From sequence record PX092659.1: 64,000 nucleotides of DNA; one strand, 5' to 3'. The notes beneath the pieces were generated by a model. The model made no database searches. It was given only the letters and a program-made list of their open reading frames with translations, and was not told the DNA's origin. Both the position numbers and the translations under genes were made by a program. Below are positions 37,817-43,651 of the stretch, in pieces; the stretch's first letter is position 1, and each line of letters opens with the position of its first letter. This DNA comes from a phage.

Positions 37817-39279
37817 ATATCGCTGGCCTGTTCACCTGTTGAATTTTCAGCTTTGTCTTTCTTAGCACGTTTAGGTTGAGCCGGCTTATCCTTCTCAATA
37901 GGGATAACGAACTCAGCTTCCATTTGAGATATATCTTCCATTGCTAGGTTGGTAGTGTTATCCATTCGCAGAGTTTCCCAGTTCATTTTAGGCATAAACT
38001 TCACGCTATCAGAAGAACGAGTCTTAACGAAGTCAAACATAATAGCACCTTGACCATTATCAGCTTTTGCAGCATTAAGATTAGCAGCCATGTCTGCGGA
38101 ATCAAGAATCCCCTTTGACATACGTGTTCTACCATCCTGATCGATCTGGTAAGGAGCTACACCAGCCACGTTATGTTTCTGGCAGATAGATTTGAAAGAC
38201 GAGCTAACAACCATCTGTTCTTTCCAGTCATACATATCAATGGTTTTAGAATCTGGAAGTCGGGTTTGGTTAATATAGTCCAGTAAAGCTACTGTAACTT
38301 TATCACCATATCTAGCAACTAATTTATTTAACTCTACATCAACTGTTGTAATGGACAGTTCAGGGTCATAAACGATAATCATAGGAGTATGTAGTTCATA
38401 CCCCTCTATTAGTTTACTCTCCATATCGTAGAAATCACTCATCTTAGCCATTGTGTACTGTTTAACAAAGTTATCGAAAAGCTCTTCACCACCATTAAAC
38501 ATTCTAGCTCTAGTTCTGGCTAATCTCAACAGAGCTGCACCTTCTAGAGTATTATTACGCATTGCTAGTGCTGATACACCAGCTAACATGGCTAGATTAC
38601 GTCTAAATACTTCATGTTCTTTCATCTCAATTGAGAAGTATGGAGCAATATCTCCATTCAAATATTGCTGAACCTGTATGTTTGAACAGATAATGGATTT
38701 ACCAGTACCACGCCAACCACCAAGCAGTAACGTTTCTGTGCGAGCTAAACCAATTTGAGCGTCGAACTCATTACAAATACCAAGAGCGATTAAGTTCAGT
38801 TTGGTATCTTCTTCTCTCTGGAAAATACGCATGTTATCTGCGTTGAATACTTTTCCAGTATTCGTTACTTTCTCTTCTAATTTTAAGTGAAGGGAGGCAA
38901 CTCGGTTGAGAATTTCTCCCTGATCCAGCATTGTTAAATCTTGAAGCACGTCTGTTTCTAGAAGCTTCAGGAATAAATCCTGTGTATATTCGGCCTCTAG
39001 GACTTCAAGTGCCTGTTCCATGCTCACTTCTGGAATTTGAGTGTTAGCTAAGACGACTAGAGCTTGAGAAAGGCGGGCGTTCCTATTAGCTTCAAGCATA
39101 AGTGCGTCAATGGACGGCATTGTGTTATATTTTTTATAATAATTCTGGACGGCTTGGTAAATTGAGGAGAAAGCGTCATTAAAATGATCTTTATGCAGTT
39201 TTGAGAATGTTTCCAATGCTATTTGCTTCTGTTCGGAAGCTAGAAGCATCTTCAACACTACAGCTTGCACGTTAAACAT
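37813..39279 (-). CDS. replicative DNA helicase, DnaB-like RecA-fold ATPase
   Basis: 488 aa; Walker A LLLGGWRGTGKS, Walker B-like IIVYDPELS; N-terminal helical domain; adjacent to primase. Confidence 0.65.
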   Translation of the reverse strand: MFNVQAVVLKMLLASEQKQIALETFSKLHKDHFNDAFSSIYQAVQNYYKKYNTMPSIDALMLEANRNARLSQALVVLANTQIPEVSMEQALEVLEAEYTQDLFLKLLETDVLQDLTMLDQGEILNRVASLHLKLEEKVTNTGKVFNADNMRIFQREEDTKLNLIALGICNEFDAQIGLARTETLLLGGWRGTGKSIICSNIQVQQYLNGDIAPYFSIEMKEHEVFRRNLAMLAGVSALAMRNNTLEGAALLRLARTRARMFNGGEELFDNFVKQYTMAKMSDFYDMESKLIEGYELHTPMIIVYDPELSITTVDVELNKLVARYGDKVTVALLDYINQTRLPDSKTIDMYDWKEQMVVSSSFKSICQKHNVAGVAPYQIDQDGRTRMSKGILDSADMAANLNAAKADNGQGAIMFDFVKTRSSDSVKFMPKMNWETLRMDNTTNLAMEDISQMEAEFVIPIEKDKPAQPKRAKKDKAENSTGEQASDI

Positions 39280-39853
39280 TATCTAGCAGCTCCTCTGTAA
39301 AGTTATCCGCTATATTCTGCGGTTTAACCCTCTCTATATCTAGAGCATCTAGAGCTGCGAAATCTCCATACAGGGCTAAAAGCAGCTTATCTCTATACCA
39401 CAGAGCTTCTCCTAGAGTTTTTAGGGTTTTTCTAAATACTTTGGAGTTTTTAGATATGGTTACTTTAAATGTGTTATTTTTTGTTACTTCTATATTACGA
39501 ATGCCTAGCTTGTTACCTATAAAGCTATTAGCGGAATTTTGAGAGGAAGTAACTTCACGTAAGTTATTCCAAGTATTATCAGTTTTAATTCTATTTTTAT
39601 GATCTACCTTGTCAGGAATTTCTCCTTCCATGTATAGAAAGGCCCACCTATGCGCTCCCATAGATTTTTGTATACCTGACTCTAAGGTTATCTTTATATA
39701 AATGTAGCCCGATGAATGCATATAGCCTGCAGGTTTGTTAGCGTGCTTAGCATTGAACGCAGGATTATTTTCTCTAGGTAGCCAGTAAAAATTTCCAGTA
39801 TCAGGCTCATATCTTAATAATGTTTTAAGATACTGCTGGGTAATCTCCCCCAT
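39272..39853 (-). CDS. HNH homing endonuclease with AP2-like domain
   Basis: 193 aa; HNH core AHRWAFLYMEGEIPDKVDHKNRIKTDN; C-terminal AP2-like segment. Confidence 0.75.
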   Translation of the reverse strand: MGEITQQYLKTLLRYEPDTGNFYWLPRENNPAFNAKHANKPAGYMHSSGYIYIKITLESGIQKSMGAHRWAFLYMEGEIPDKVDHKNRIKTDNTWNNLREVTSSQNSANSFIGNKLGIRNIEVTKNNTFKVTISKNSKVFRKTLKTLGEALWYRDKLLLALYGDFAALDALDIERVKPQNIADNFTEELLDNV

Positions 39854-39912: not shown

Positions 39913-40680
39913 TTATTCAGCAGCCGCAGCTTTTGCATCCAGTTTAGCACGCTTAGCGGCACCATCATAGTCCTTAGCAACCAGACCACGACGGGACAGC
40001 ATAGATTTAACACCACGCTCAGACTTACCAGTTTTCTCAGCGATCTCAGCAACAGTCATGTTAACCAGATCCAGACCTTCTAACAGATCTTCACGAGTTT
40101 TAGCACTTGAAGTTTCCTGTACCGGCATAGCCGCAATACGACCTTCACGGAGCAGGCTCAGAGCTTTACCACGGATCTGCTTAATATTGCGACCGAAGTG
40201 AGCAGCGATAGCTTCAATAGTAGCACCAGCAACAACCTGATTAACAAAGTCAGTTTCTTCATCCGGAGTGAAGGAACGAACAGCAGCAGCTTTTTCAGTT
40301 GGTTTAACAGAAGCGGTCATTTCCAGACTCAGGATCTTACCCTGTACCTGTTTAGCACCAAACTGACCACCAGCTACAGCAGCAGCGATTTCAGCATAAG
40401 TATACTGACCAGCATGAGCGTTCAGGAAATCAACCAGTTCAGCTTCCTGCTCAGGAGTCCACGGGGATTTCTGTACTTCGTTAGCTTTCTGTACTTCGAA
40501 ACCTTCTTTACGCAGCTTAGAGCCAACAGAGCGAGCGGTAACGTCTTTGCCAGTTTCAGCAGCCAGTTCAGCAGCGATAGCCGCTACTTGTTCTTGAGAG
40601 ATTACAGCAACACCCAGAGCAGTGGCTTTTGCTTTCAGAGACTCGGTTACACCTTCTACGTTCCAGTTCAGTTTAGACAT
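39913..40680 (-). CDS. abundant early DNA-binding protein with three internal repeats (D5-like)
   Basis: 255 aa, Ala-rich, E. coli-optimal codons; three repeated helix-turn-helix-like modules (TYAEIAAAVAGGQFGAKQVQGKILSL / TIEAIAAHFGRNIKQIRGKALSL / TVAEIAEKTGKSERGVKSMLSR). Confidence 0.5.
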   Translation of the reverse strand: MSKLNWNVEGVTESLKAKATALGVAVISQEQVAAIAAELAAETGKDVTARSVGSKLRKEGFEVQKANEVQKSPWTPEQEAELVDFLNAHAGQYTYAEIAAAVAGGQFGAKQVQGKILSLEMTASVKPTEKAAAVRSFTPDEETDFVNQVVAGATIEAIAAHFGRNIKQIRGKALSLLREGRIAAMPVQETSSAKTREDLLEGLDLVNMTVAEIAEKTGKSERGVKSMLSRRGLVAKDYDGAAKRAKLDAKAAAAE

Positions 40681-41452
40681 TATTATTTTTCTCCAATAGT
40701 TCTTTAATCGACAGGATTTCTATCCCATTCGTTTCGGCTTTCTTATAAGATGAGGAAGAACGCTTCGATTCATCCTCACAGATTAGGTATTTGACGTCTT
40801 TGGTAACGGATTTCTTAACCGTATATCCTAGACCTTCTAAATAGTTTGTTGCATCCGTTCTATTTGCAAAATCTTGCAAAGATCCGGTAATACATACCGT
40901 TATTCCGTTTGGTTGGGCTACTAGACCATCAGTGATGATGACCTCAGCTTTAGCACCTTTAATACCGGTTGTGAATTTCCATGGTAATTCGATAACATCC
41001 TTGCCTTGTGGGGAATTTAGCCAGGCTTTATAATTTTCTCCAGCTTTGCCATCAGCTCTCACATCATGGAAGCTAGTGCAATTTTGGGATAATTTCTTTG
41101 CTGCAACCTCTCCAATTAGAGGGATTCCTAAAGAACCGAGAACTGAACCAAAGTCAATGTCTCCGCGAACTTTAGTATTTAATTCGCTAATTAACTTAGC
41201 GGCAACCTTGCTACCCACGGCTCTAACCAAATCTTCTTCGGTTAGGTAAAATAGTTCTGAAATCTTCGTCAGCTCCAGCTTCTCAATAGTTTTTGGGCCA
41301 AAGCCCTTTAACTTCATTTTTGTACAGAAGTTCTCAATTAACTTACTTGACTGCGCTGGACAGTTGGACTTATTCCTACAGAATAATTGTCCGTTGACAA
41401 GATCTAGCTTAGAACCACAAGAGGGACATTGTGTTGGAATTTCGATTTTCAT
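40673..41452 (-). CDS. ligB: NAD-dependent DNA ligase, C-terminal part (Zn finger, HhH, BRCT) - subunit B
   Basis: LigA-type zinc finger CPSCGSKLDLVNGQLFCRNKSNCPAQ, HhH GFGPKTIEKL, C-terminal BRCT-like; ATG 41452 with SD AGGAAG. Confidence 0.8.
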   Translation of the reverse strand: MKIEIPTQCPSCGSKLDLVNGQLFCRNKSNCPAQSSKLIENFCTKMKLKGFGPKTIEKLELTKISELFYLTEEDLVRAVGSKVAAKLISELNTKVRGDIDFGSVLGSLGIPLIGEVAAKKLSQNCTSFHDVRADGKAGENYKAWLNSPQGKDVIELPWKFTTGIKGAKAEVIITDGLVAQPNGITVCITGSLQDFANRTDATNYLEGLGYTVKKSVTKDVKYLICEDESKRSSSSYKKAETNGIEILSIKELLEKNNNV

Positions 41453-41482
41453 CAAATTTCTTCCTTATCAATTTATATAAAT

Positions 41483-41511
41483 ATTATAGCAAGTATTTAA
41501 GCATTTAGCAA
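41483..41511 (-). promoter_or_regulatory. T5-type early promoter between ligase halves
   Basis: minus strand TTGCTA(41511-41506)-17 bp-TATAAT(41488-41483) followed by ATTTATATAAATTGA. Confidence 0.6.
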
Positions 41512-41654
41512 CTACAATTTTAACTAACTTTGCTCACCCTCGCCATAACTTTCTATCCCTCAACTGAATGATAATAGTATATACCTAAGCGGCGAAAATG
41601 TCAATAACCACTTTATAATTCCGATATGGTAGATGGGTAGCAAAGGGTTATGTA

Positions 41655-42626
41655 TTAATCATATACTCGCTCTACTATGCACGGGATTACACCACCAGCA
41701 CGAATCACTCGAATCTGGCAACCGATCTCTAGATCGAGAGAGTTAATATAATCAACGTTATTAAGAGTCGCTTTAACAATTGTAGCATCATCAATAATTA
41801 CCGGTTCGAAATAACCAACTGGAGTTACTTTACCAGAAGCCCCTACCTGCCACTCAACTTTAGTAAGAGTTGTAATCTCGCCTTCTTCATCCTCTTTAAC
41901 AGCAAATGCTCCACGAGGGAATTTATTAGTCCAGCCTTCACGGAAGAATTTGTTGTTGTCATTAATACGAACAACTTTACCGTCCGTCGGAATCCATTTA
42001 AAGAAGGAACGCACATTAACAACTGTTAAGAAGTTCTCATTCTCTAGCCAAAGCATATCTTTTAAGTATGCTTCTGTAATACCTACAGATTCAGCAGAAC
42101 ACTGGATACCATAAGCAACAAAGATTAAACCACCTTCCCCGATACGTTGTACGAAATCATCACTATCTTTGAGGTTAATAGCACCAGAGGCAAAGTTACG
42201 TTTATTTTCTACTTCTTTTGTAATTAGAACTTCACCAGTGATTTGAGTTGGTACTTTTTGGGAAATCTTTTTAGGGATATTCAGCAGTCTTACGTTGCTT
42301 GTGACATCATTCCCTAGAATACCATTACCACGAGTTAGTGCTTGAACAAATTCGCCATTAATATATAGTAGAGAAATCGCACAACCATCTAACTTGTCAG
42401 TTTCTACCTGACCTAATGGGTTAAATGGGGGTTTATCTCCACGATTATAATAAACTTTCTGTAAAGAATACATACGATACAGATGTGGAATATCGCCCTT
42501 AGGCCCGATCTCTTCTTCTAACGGAAATCTTTTAATCAGACGATCATATTCTTCGTCAGAGATTAAAGACATTCCCTGGTAATATGCTTCTTGACAGCGT
42601 TTAATAAATTCTTTTACATTGGTCAT
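41655..42626 (-). CDS. ligA: NAD-dependent DNA ligase, N-terminal adenylation/OB part - subunit A
   Basis: 323 aa; adenylation motif KLDG (ETDKLDGCAISLLY), NAD-ligase nucleotidyltransferase and OB-fold region; ends where Zn-finger domain would begin. Confidence 0.85.
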   Translation of the reverse strand: MTNVKEFIKRCQEAYYQGMSLISDEEYDRLIKRFPLEEEIGPKGDIPHLYRMYSLQKVYYNRGDKPPFNPLGQVETDKLDGCAISLLYINGEFVQALTRGNGILGNDVTSNVRLLNIPKKISQKVPTQITGEVLITKEVENKRNFASGAINLKDSDDFVQRIGEGGLIFVAYGIQCSAESVGITEAYLKDMLWLENENFLTVVNVRSFFKWIPTDGKVVRINDNNKFFREGWTNKFPRGAFAVKEDEEGEITTLTKVEWQVGASGKVTPVGYFEPVIIDDATIVKATLNNVDYINSLDLEIGCQIRVIRAGGVIPCIVERVYD

Positions 42627-42657
42627 TTATTTATATCTCTCATTAATTTATATAAAT

Positions 42658-42686
42658 ATTATATAACAAAACTGAGTTGAAAGCAA
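42658..42686 (-). promoter_or_regulatory. T5-type early promoter upstream of ligA
   Basis: minus strand TTGCTT(42686-42681)-17 bp-TATAAT(42663-42658), A/T-rich upstream, ATTTATATAAATTAATGAGAG start region. Confidence 0.65.
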
Positions 42687-42692
42687 ATACAT

Positions 42693-43004
42693 TTATTCTT
42701 TTTCCGCCAGGCGTTTAGCTTCTTTTTCTACTTCTAATAAAACCTCACTATTAGATAATATTTTAGTAAATGCCTTAAATAAATGAGATGTTGTTTCTAG
42801 AGTGTATGGCATACTGAATCCACTTTTTGTTGGAAACCATTCACCTTCTATATCTTGGAGCCAGTACCTAATTCCTAAGTATAGATTCCCCCTAAACTCA
42901 GATACAGTTAGCCTAACCTGTTGGCCATCTTCTCTTTCCCAGATAACTATGGACTGATCATCTACATGTCCAACATAATCCTGATTTACATTATCTCCCG
43001 ACAT
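42693..43004 (-). CDS. putative PC4-like ssDNA-binding protein
   Basis: 103 aa; RLTVSEFRGNLYLGIRYW...WFPTKSGFS pattern resembles PC4/YdbC-like fold; assignment by motif only. Confidence 0.4.
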   Translation of the reverse strand: MSGDNVNQDYVGHVDDQSIVIWEREDGQQVRLTVSEFRGNLYLGIRYWLQDIEGEWFPTKSGFSMPYTLETTSHLFKAFTKILSNSEVLLEVEKEAKRLAEKE

Positions 43005-43651
43005 TTTATTGCTCCCTGACTTAGGAGATATTCCTCTGCCTCCTCTGGTTGAATATTAAAAAACTCAGTAGAACCATCAAATATTGATTCTGTAAATATC
43101 TGTGTAGTACTAAAAAATCTATGAGCTTTATTTTCTAGATTATACGCTGACTCATCATAAGAGTATACTCCATATATACTCAAGTCCTCCAGATTAGAAT
43201 CTTTTTTGATCTCTAAAAGTCTTCTATCTGGACTTTTAGATGTTCCTATTTTTGTGCCTAGTTGTGGGCTATAAAATACGTATAAATAGCTAGTAGATTT
43301 ACACATAGGGCATGATCTACCAGCATTTTTAACTTTATCTACACTACTAGTCCACGTGTGTCCGTGGGTGCACTCAAATATTGCCGGACTTTGGGAATTT
43401 ATATAGGAGGATATAAGTTTTATACCTTTAGTACTTAACTGTTGATTTATGACCTCTACAGTTAGTTTAGCTTTGCCACTACAATAAGGGCAGCCACTAC
43501 CTTTCCGTATATTACTTAAATATCCCTTCCATTGATGACCTTTTGAACACTCAAATATAGCGGGTGTTCTTATATTAGCCCATTCACTCACTATATGAAA
43601 ACCTAGTGGCTCTAACTCTTTATTTATTTGCTCTTCTGTTAATTTTTTCAC
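42986..43651 (-). CDS. zinc-ribbon plus T5orf172/GIY-YIG-like putative homing endonuclease
   Basis: 221 aa; two repeats ending in CPYC/CPMC; C-terminal YLYVFYSPQLGTKIGTSKSPDRRL...GSTEFF; GTG start; paralog of 1489..2163 and 54845..55708. Confidence 0.6.
   Translation of the reverse strand: MKKLTEEQINKELEPLGFHIVSEWANIRTPAIFECSKGHQWKGYLSNIRKGSGCPYCSGKAKLTVEVINQQLSTKGIKLISSYINSQSPAIFECTHGHTWTSSVDKVKNAGRSCPMCKSTSYLYVFYSPQLGTKIGTSKSPDRRLLEIKKDSNLEDLSIYGVYSYDESAYNLENKAHRFFSTTQIFTESIFDGSTEFFNIQPEEAEEYLLSQGAIKCREIM

Follow-up and report, generated by a model that had tools for sequence, protein, structure and literature searches.

We conclude, with a probability of roughly 0.9, that the locus described here is the ligA/ligB pair of a T5-like phage (Demerecviridae), a compact two-gene NAD+-dependent DNA ligase whose halves associate non-covalently and whose spacer is the boundary between transcription units. 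The locus lies in a window of 64,000 nucleotides of phage DNA (record PX092659.1). The split ligase itself is already known: it has been annotated since 2004-5, has stood for about twenty years in GenBank and the literature, and the structure of a homologue has been solved. The features on which the argument is built are the following:

41655..42626, minus strand: ligA, the 323-aa N-terminal half of the ligase (ORF, Pfam, PDB match and alignment to E. coli LigA)
40673..41452, minus strand: ligB, the 259-aa C-terminal half of the ligase (ORF, Pfam, PDB match and LigA alignments)
39913..40680, minus strand: D5, a DNA-binding replication and late-transcription factor (ORF and T5 annotation)
42632..42706, minus strand: ligA promoter region (mapped colinearly from a "promoter" feature of the T5 record)
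41550..41624, minus strand: promoter P-K28b, upstream member of a tandem pair (11/12 in the consensus scan; T5 feature "promoter P-K 28b")
41457..41531, minus strand: promoter P-K28a, the proximal member, with an extended -10 (10/12 with TG in the consensus scan; T5 feature "promoter P-K 28a")
41460..41466, minus strand: Shine-Dalgarno sequence of ligB, AAGGAAG, 7 nt upstream of the ATG (read from the sequence)
41613..41648, minus strand: non-coding stretch with homology to the final ~11-12 codons of a homing-endonuclease ORF of the GIY-YIG type (alignment with phages SP3 and SG_WM_RUS_R2)

In the mechanism that we propose, two genes express the ligase, and the break in its polypeptide falls in the flexible linker that joins the OB fold to the zinc finger. 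LigA, with domain Ia for NAD+ recognition, the adenylated lysine K78 and the OB fold, would adenylate itself and carry out the chemistry at the nick, and LigB would supply the zinc-finger, HhH and BRCT modules that in single-chain LigA clamp the DNA and are required once adenylation has taken place. By associating non-covalently, the two proteins would then restore the architecture of LigA at a nick in the DNA. Two early promoters of the sigma-70 type, P-K28b and P-K28a, stand in tandem in the 202-nt spacer, and a strong ribosome-binding site comes after them; because the spacer carries these signals, ligB would head a ligB-D5 unit and ligA would close the preceding one, whose own promoter is very similar. 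For this phage, the LigA-LigB heterodimer and its ligase activity are predicted from sequence, and the gap promoters are probably used in vivo.

The earlier note had described the ligase as two separate ORFs 202 bp apart, and both ORFs are indeed found there on the minus strand, with Pfam supporting each half. The product of ligA comprises domain Ia, a nucleotidyltransferase (adenylation) domain with the KLDG motif and an OB fold, and matches PF01653 (DNA_ligase_aden; 2e-23, 83.5 bits against a cutoff of 27) and PF03120 (DNA_ligase_OB; 4e-22, 78.4 bits against a cutoff of 32.9). Residue-level alignment to the E. coli structures 2owo and 4glx equates K78 of motif I (within ETDKLDGCA; codon at 42395..42393) with K115 of E. 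coli LigA. Motifs III, IV and V are likewise present (E132, D215 and K244 aligning with E. coli E173, D285 and K314), and motif VI of the OB domain (RxGxVIP) is kept as RAGGVIP, with R309, V313 and I314 at the positions of E. coli R379, V383 and I384. The NMN-binding residues of domain Ia that determine NAD+ specificity (E. coli Y22, D32, Y35 and D36) correspond to Y15/Y16, D24, Y27 and D28 of LigA, in segments that score low when taken alone; there AYYQG..SDEEYDRL of LigA is aligned with PDAEYDRL of E. coli and YY..SDAEYDRL of Thermus.

The product of ligB holds a Cys4 zinc finger, an HhH region and a BRCT domain. The last is recognized by Pfam (1.6e-8, 35.1 bits against a cutoff of 21.3), and the zinc-finger cysteines C9, C12, C25 and C31 align with C408, C411, C426 and C432 of E. 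coli LigA. The HHH_2 match is weak (24.3, under the cutoff of 27), yet residues 3-122 align to E. coli LigA 402-529; LigB also aligns to positions 596-666 of that protein and to 400-653 of T. filiformis LigA. The ORF can be extended to a TTG at 41455, and the ATG start (MKI) is the one used in the T5 annotation and in PDB chain 9hu3_B. All of the best 120 LigB homologues are stand-alone proteins, 117 of them with 247-263 aa and three shorter.

Comparison with E. coli LigA (PDB 2owo) yielded the same order of modules (Ia, NTase, OB, Zn, HhH, BRCT) and the same catalytic residues. The E. coli enzyme is one chain of 671 aa, whereas the phage enzyme amounts to 582 aa in two chains, has a more compact nucleotidyltransferase region and replaces the DNA-contact residues R333 and T334 of the E. 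coli OB domain with A263 and S264 (K-S in Providencia phage vB_PreS_PR1, hereafter PR1). All modules stand on one polypeptide in the LigA family; here they are distributed over two ORFs in different frames. Since LigA residue 320 corresponds to position 390 of E. coli LigA and LigB residue 3 to position 402, the break lies in the OB/Zn linker, with about six residues lacking a counterpart. The alignment to bacterial LigA that had been proposed for locating the breakpoint thus places it at about residues 393/400 of the E. coli enzyme.

The arrangement is shared throughout the sampled family. The window is 96-97% identical in nucleotide sequence to T5, BF23 and fp01; in their records ligA and ligB are entered as ligase subunits A and B, in agreement with the earlier note, which named such annotations for T5-like phages. 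T5 has the same gene order, the same lengths (323 + 259 aa), the same 202-nt gap with both promoters and the same ligB/D5 overlap, and is 99.4% identical in LigA, 98.5% in LigB and 99.5% in the gap; within the locus we found no difference of organization between the two phages. The same break occurs in T5-like phages, Klebsiella phage FZ41, Providencia PR1, Proteus PM135 and three Vibrio phages, the junction sequences are conserved across seven lineages, and synteny is kept (PC4-like gene > ligA > ligB > D5 > replicative helicase). The spacer of two-gene relatives ranges between 192 and 1360 nt, and in the four longest (344-1360 nt) one to three ORFs are annotated. Most of the small ORFs at this place in Proteus and Vibrio phages gave no Pfam match.

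Structural data point in the same direction. LigA matches PDB chain 9hu3_A ("DNA ligase (NAD+)", 8e-104) and LigB matches 9hu3_B ("DNA ligase subunit B", 1e-79); entries 9hu3 and 9i5i each hold both chains, and chain A is 100% identical to the protein of PR1. The PR1 enzyme resembles that of this phage in having two chains with the same break point and a gap of 192 nt with the same tandem promoters, and it differs in small insertions in the nucleotidyltransferase domain, in a non-synonymous difference of about 32% per site in each half and in a terminator annotated after ligA. Our literature search found no primary paper for these two structures, and the searchable literature held no activity or interaction data for the T5 ligase itself; a mention of ligase in a paper on retron Eco2 was irrelevant.

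Contigs of uncultured T5-like phages, P0154 and P0162 among them, encode compact T5-type ligases of 555-586 aa on a single chain, 39-46% identical to LigA, and LigA plus LigB tile the five aligned ones end to end. A neighbour-joining tree of N-terminal halves sets the compact T5-type clade apart from the long bacterial LigA. The contigs share the synteny PC4-like > ligase > D5 homologue > DnaB > primase, fully in P0154 and P0162 and partially in the other six, with D5 homologues directly behind the fused ligase. The single-chain ligases are uninterrupted, with a variable linker of 12-28 aa, and it is at this place that T5-like phages have a stop, promoters and a new start.

An alternative to a two-subunit ligase is that both halves act independently, LigA being a self-sufficient minimal ligase and LigB a DNA-binding or scaffold protein for the D5 replication and late-transcription machinery. 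Minimal ligases devoid of DNA-binding appendages do exist in other families, such as Lig E and the Chlorella virus ligase. Furthermore, the ligB stop and the D5 ATG overlap by 8 nt, and ligB is therefore probably co-transcribed and translationally coupled with D5 and not with ligA; in Vibrio phages as many as three ORFs lie between ligA and ligB. Against independence, ligA and ligB occur together wherever both flanks are present (40 loci), the single-chain relatives encompass both halves, and two PDB entries contain the two chains together, under names that make them subunits of a single enzyme. In addition, LigA-type enzymes truncated after the OB fold self-adenylate but cannot ligate (PMC1684257). 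Taking these data together, we regard independent halves as improbable, and favor the two-subunit ligase.

It could also be argued that one of the halves is the decaying remnant of a ligase gene disrupted by an insertion, and the gap is an insertion site. Salmonella phages SP3 and SG_WM_RUS_R2 carry a 213-aa GIY-YIG ORF inside it, and the gap of this phage contains about 36 nt, within its first 42 nt, that are homologous to the 3' end of that ORF and read ..PSTISEL*. Both ligase ORFs, though, are full length in the 40 loci examined. In ligA of this phage the catalytic lysine, motifs III-V and the OB motif are intact, as are the Cys4 finger and BRCT in ligB. Both halves are under purifying selection, with dN/dS values at unsaturated distances of 0.012-0.12 for ligA and 0.065-0.11 for ligB, hence no greater than 0.12 in either, and the two-gene arrangement persists to a depth at which synonymous sites are saturated. 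The possibility of a non-functional remnant, named in the earlier note as an outcome that would refute a two-polypeptide enzyme, is contradicted by the selection data, and we consider decay very improbable.

No homing endonuclease gene lies between ligA and ligB in this phage or in nearly all of its relatives; in a collection of 50,697 phage records the GIY-YIG endonuclease occurs in two distinct phages (three records), as against 514 records matching the locus. The split of the ligase is far older than the GIY-YIG endonuclease of the gap.

The gap between the two ligase genes (41453..41654) comprises 202 nt of non-coding DNA and, because 202 mod 3 = 1, the frames of ligA and ligB differ. That the gap might be removed or bypassed to give one polypeptide (through an intron of group I or II, programmed frameshifting, read-through or a split intein) is next to negligible. 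In its favor, the two halves lie near each other in collinear order on one strand, and group I introns do interrupt phage genes. Against it, a permissive Rfam search of 41300-41800 gave only chance-level matches, none better than E = 4, the three frames of the gap contain 7, 7 and 8 stops, two conserved promoters fill it, ORFs are annotated within it in related genera, LigA and LigB leave no surplus residues for intein halves when tiled on the single-chain relatives, and the PDB homologue is a two-chain structure. The view that the gap is a promoter region and not a group I intron, and that the enzyme is encoded as two polypeptides, is therefore upheld.

A single T5-type promoter at 41483-41511 had been noticed before. 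That promoter is present exactly there and is P-K28a (-35 TTGCTA at 41511..41506, a 17-nt spacer and TGcTATAAT with its -10 at 41488..41483); the count has to be raised to two, as P-K28b lies 93 nt upstream and is the better consensus match of the pair (-35 TTGACA at 41604..41599, 17 nt, -10 TATACT at 41581..41576). The ends of the -10 hexamers stand 123 and 30 nt from the ligB ATG, compared with 122-127 and 29-31 nt in those relatives whose sites passed the scan, and across seven sampled lineages of T5-like phages the tandem promoters hold their spacing to this ATG; of the proximal promoter, two Vibrio phages keep the extended -10 alone. The block TTGnTATAATATT of P-K28a is invariant in the seven-lineage alignment. 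The consensus scan by itself does not rise above chance (six sites found versus 7.9 expected in shuffles), and the gap promoters are credible because the T5 record annotates both and because of this conserved spacing. P-K28a and P-K28b reportedly go back to experiments of the Bujard laboratory in the 1980s, with which the feature names of the T5 record agree; our search for the original papers returned unrelated matches only.

Among 31 close relatives the gap is 98.9% identical, versus 95.2% for ligA and 96.0% for ligB, and its most variable part is the start, where 10 of 32 columns vary versus 9 of 170 in the remainder. A mini-ORF of eight codons (MARVSKVS) downstream of P-K28b was dropped as a coding feature, being not conserved across the lineages compared.

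The promoter region of ligA has its core at -35 TTGCTT (42686..42681) and -10 TATAAT (42663..42658) with a 17-nt spacer, followed by an SD-like GAGAGA at 42641..42636, and shares with the ligB promoter an exact 19-nt block, TATAATATTTATATAAATT. It is absent from the consensus scan because its -35 matches at only three of six positions. The terminator scan gave no terminator-like site after ligA, and ligA and ligB may therefore also be co-transcribed.

A possible, if rather doubtful, origin of the two-gene ligase is that the split is derived, a promoter cassette having been inserted, perhaps by way of a mobile gene, into the variable OB/Zn linker of an ancestral single-chain compact ligase, so that the C-terminal half became the first gene of the ligB-D5 unit. 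Under this scenario the split would have been retained for a level or timing of LigB different from that of LigA, and perhaps for a second role with D5. A derived split would agree with three observations: uncultured T5-like phages still have single-chain relatives in the same syntenic place, six of the eight have their best promoter-like site just 3' of the junction position, and the junction is still a hotspot for insertion of the GIY-YIG endonuclease and other ORFs. The T5-type ligase offers a clean natural case in which an essential enzyme of several domains works although its chain is cut at a flexible linker. The comparative set, with its syntenic single-chain relatives, a promoter pair conserved in the sampled family members and an occasional homing endonuclease in the gap, is a system for studying the origin of gene fission in phage genomes and the reasons for its retention.

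A parallel may be drawn with Aeromonas phage Aeh1, in which, as Friedrich et al. are said to have described in 2007, a free-standing homing endonuclease splits a gene in the order nrdA-a / mobE / nrdA-b. Both cases involve an essential enzyme made as two polypeptides that reassemble, and an endonuclease stands between the ligase halves in SP3 and SG_WM_RUS_R2; this phage differs in having no endonuclease gene there, just the short stretch homologous to the end of its ORF.

Insertions behind the megablast matches to this locus in two pieces (SP01, NR01, VEc33 and HZ_ZJUN2) lie upstream of ligA and not in the gap. The flanks of the present locus depart from those of T5: an additional gene for an HNH endonuclease separates D5 from the helicase, and a T5orf172-type ORF lies on the upstream side.

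The earlier note had described the NAD-dependent DNA ligase of this phage as two separate ORFs, and the ORF listing together with the domain matches bore this out:

42626..41655, minus strand: ligA ORF, 323 aa (ORF listing)
41452(41455)..40673, minus strand: ligB ORF, 259/260 aa (ORF listing)

The ligA ORF contains ETDKLDGCA and matched two ligase models of Pfam, the NAD-dependent adenylation domain at 2e-23 and the OB domain at 4e-22. The ligB product begins with MKIEIPTQCPSCGS...C.....C, corresponding to a Cys4 finger, and matched the BRCT model (1.6e-8) and, weakly, the HhH models. The 202-nt gap between them is non-coding (7, 7 and 8 stops in its three frames), the two genes lie in different reading frames, and the following gene, D5, starts inside the end of ligB (8-nt overlap between its ATG and the ligB stop).

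Comparison with bacterial LigA, a check that the note had proposed, was made by phmmer against PDB sequences: LigA 214-320 aligns with E. coli LigA 284-390 and LigB 3-122 with 402-529. These alignments put the end of LigA at about residue 393 and the start of LigB at about residue 400 in E. coli numbering; so aligned, the break falls where a short linker joins the OB fold to the zinc finger (C408), with about six residues lacking a counterpart. Every mappable E. coli LigA residue is kept except two, including the motif residues K78, E132, D215 and K244 (E. coli K115, E173, D285 and K314), the OB-domain residues R309, V313 and I314 (R379, V383 and I384), the domain Ia residues (Y15/Y16 pair, D24, Y27 and D28) and all four zinc-finger cysteines of LigB. 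The exceptions are R333 and T334, which contact DNA in the OB domain:

41838..41843, minus strand: A263 and S264 of LigA, at the positions of E. coli R333 and T334

These two positions are Ala-Ser in the window phage and Lys-Ser in Providencia phage vB_PreS_PR1, and vary within the compact clade to which these ligases belong.

The split is already known, as the note had supposed, and its observation and interpretation were both correct. The 2.3-kb ligase region is 96-97% identical to T5, BF23, fp01 and about 400 further T5-like phages; the T5 and BF23 records annotate ligA and ligB, and a 2013 T5 paper lists both subunits (PMC3632103). The top PDB matches were chains A and B of 9hu3 and 9i5i, namely a 339-aa "DNA ligase (NAD(+))" (E = 8e-104 to LigA) and a 248-aa "DNA ligase subunit B" (E = 1e-79 to LigB). 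A tblastn search matched chain A at 100% identity to PR1 (T5-like, genus Priunavirus), whose locus is laid out like that of the window but with a gap of 192 nt, so that the proposed two-polypeptide enzyme has a homologue deposited as two chains. A literature search found no paper accompanying these entries. We consider it highly probable (about 0.9) that LigA and LigB form a non-covalent heterodimer that rebuilds the LigA architecture, with ligB on its own conserved tandem promoters at the head of a ligB-D5 unit. That LigA functions independently of LigB is very improbable: an archaeal LigA-type enzyme cut after the OB fold, in an experiment explicitly prompted by the T5 split, still adenylated itself but did not ligate (PMC1684257).

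A pseudogene is rejected by low dN/dS values on both halves (ligA 0.012-0.12, ligB 0.065-0.11; Nei-Gojobori, relatives at unsaturated distance) and by ORFs that are full length in 40/40 loci containing both; neither half is thus the non-functional remnant that would have spoken against the note's reading. An intein is rejected, as LigA and LigB together account for the whole length of the five single-chain relatives aligned, fused ligases of uncultured T5-like contigs, and leave no residues over. Read-through by recoding is excluded because the frames differ and all gap frames carry stops. The note had dismissed a group I intron, and the search for this or another RNA element gave no Rfam match better than E = 4 in 41300-41800 at a permissive threshold.

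To what is known the comparative analysis adds promoter conservation across seven lineages, single-chain relatives at a shared syntenic position and endonuclease-related sequence in the gap. These are modest additions, describing no new kind of system, and may or may not already be contained in an unpublished or unlocated structural paper.

The promoter claimed in the gap lies exactly where the note had placed it, but it is not alone, a better consensus match lying 93 nt upstream:

TTGACA 41604..41599, 17 nt, TATACT 41581..41576, minus strand: second promoter, P-K28b (consensus scan)
TTGCTA 41511..41506, 17-nt spacer, TGcTATAAT -10 41488..41483, minus strand: the note's promoter, P-K28a (consensus scan)
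42645..42663 and 41470..41488, minus strand: 19-nt -10/leader block TATAATATTTATATAAATT of the ligA promoter and P-K28a
41537..41563, minus strand: mini-ORF MARVSKVS, after SD-like GAGGGA, in the putative P-K28b transcript

The T5 record annotates "promoter P-K 28b" and "promoter P-K 28a" in the gap and another promoter before ligA; since the window gap is 99.5% identical to that of T5, the two scan matches are these promoters. The scan by itself was not significant (6 sites observed vs 7.9 expected). In the 31 close relatives whose gap is also 202 nt, mean identity to the window was 98.9% in the gap, 95.2% in ligA and 96.0% in ligB, and synonymous-site differences in the two genes were 10-52%. 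The gap is functional DNA, and its variation is front-loaded, with 10 of the first 32 columns variable vs 9 of the remaining 170. When the 173 nt preceding ligB were aligned across the seven lineages, which are saturated at synonymous sites, the (near-)invariant elements were TTGAC(A/G)-17-TATA(C/A)T upstream and, downstream, the -35 region TTGC.. together with the extended -10 block TTGnTATAATATT. The distance from the end of the -10 to the ligB ATG is 122-127 nt for the upstream promoter and, in each lineage passing the scan, 29-31 nt for the downstream one. Where extra genes occur, they follow the ligA stop and precede this cassette, so that in every case ligB comes first in a unit with D5 and ligA last in the transcription unit before it. 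The block TATAATATTTATATAAATT has only two exact copies within the 64-kb window (7 matches at up to 3 mismatches vs 0.22 expected by chance), and its presence at both promoters would fit early expression of ligA and ligB in step with each other. Of the seven lineages, four (the window, Klebsiella and two Vibrio phages) retain the SD-like block in front of the mini-ORF, which itself is not conserved.

The same break occurs in six further phages with nearly identical junctions (...RAGGVIPxIVE...* / MKIxIPxxCPxCGS...), and that ligA and ligB are separate genes is most simply proved by the ORFs annotated between them:

Gap between ligA and ligB in six further phages
Klebsiella FZ41: 199 nt, no annotated ORF
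Providencia PR1: 192 nt, no annotated ORF
Proteus PM135: 344 nt, one 55-aa ORF
Vibrio 70E34-1b: 443 nt, two ORFs
Vibrio pVp-1: 1135 nt, 73-aa ORF and DprA-like gene
Vibrio Thalassa: 1360 nt, three ORFs

In a search of 5.8 billion proteins, the best 120 LigB homologues were all stand-alone (117 of 247-263 aa, three of 190-214 aa).

Exhaustive phmmer with LigA as query returned many stand-alone relatives of about 305-340 aa and also proteins of 555-586 aa matching LigA over its full length (39-46% identity). The C-terminal halves of all five single-chain proteins aligned match LigB, and window LigA and LigB meet within their variable 12-28-aa linker. Eight such ligases lie on uncultured phage contigs:

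L042 5790-7490; L045 6001-7674; L046-L051 (retrieved records): single-chain ligase genes

In most, the next gene after the ligase is a D5-sized ORF, confirmed as a D5 homologue in two (37-43% identity, E = 1e-50 to 1e-57); downstream Pfam matches are DnaB, primase or PolA in five contigs, and the upstream PC4-like gene was confirmed in one. From these shared neighbours, the single-chain ligases occupy the genomic position of ligA plus ligB. No fused ligase was present among the cultured phages of the collection searched. A crude neighbour-joining tree without support values placed these proteins in a compact clade apart from long bacterial LigA, with most fused forms basal, yet fused and split forms interleaved. 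A single fission event is likely. In six of the eight fused genes the best sigma-70-like site falls within codons 318-411, directly downstream of the OB/Zn junction, a weak statistic on sequences that are not independent, and L042 carries TGcTATAATAT inside its linker codons; this hints that an internal D5 promoter may predate the split.

Mobile DNA is also present at the junction. Salmonella phages SP3 and SG_WM_RUS_R2 have a 794-nt gap with a 213-aa ORF, starting 8 nt before the ligA stop, whose GIY-YIG catalytic domain passes the Pfam cutoff (1e-5); among the 50,697 records of the phage collection it was found in three (two distinct phages). About 11-12 codons at its 3' end are homologous to window gap positions 7-42, reading ...PSTISEL*. 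Either the genomes without the endonuclease arose by its deletion, or the endonuclease took its C-terminus from sequence already resident there. Two further endonuclease-type ORFs lie near the window locus, and T5 lacks both there, having only a 31-nt spacer between D5 and the helicase:

L026 4965-5606; L041 2001-2642 (records of SP3 / SG_WM_RUS_R2): GIY-YIG homing-endonuclease ORF
41613..41648, minus strand: non-coding homologue of the endonuclease 3' end (alignment with GIY-YIG ORF)
39272..39853, minus strand: HNH endonuclease ORF (PF13392, 5.5e-14), between D5 and the replicative helicase
42986..43651, minus strand: 221-aa ORF (treble-clef zinc finger DUF4379, CapR, T5orf172/MUG113), upstream of the PC4-like gene; also in fp01, SP01 and HZ_ZJUN2

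A DprA-like gene (L035 3921-4448; L034 1869-2501; L036 4112-4672) separates ligA from ligB in the Vibrio phages pVp-1 and Thalassa and stands directly upstream of ligA in Proteus PM135, differing positions that indicate gene shuffling around the junction. Two database records, the 4.8-kb OR847187.1 ("Listeria phage LM 4-11-1"), 97% identical to the T5-like ligase locus, and a 115-kb contig labelled Brucella melitensis with a LigB copy (protein P0039), probably represent sequence of T5-like phages that was wrongly labelled or is a contaminant.
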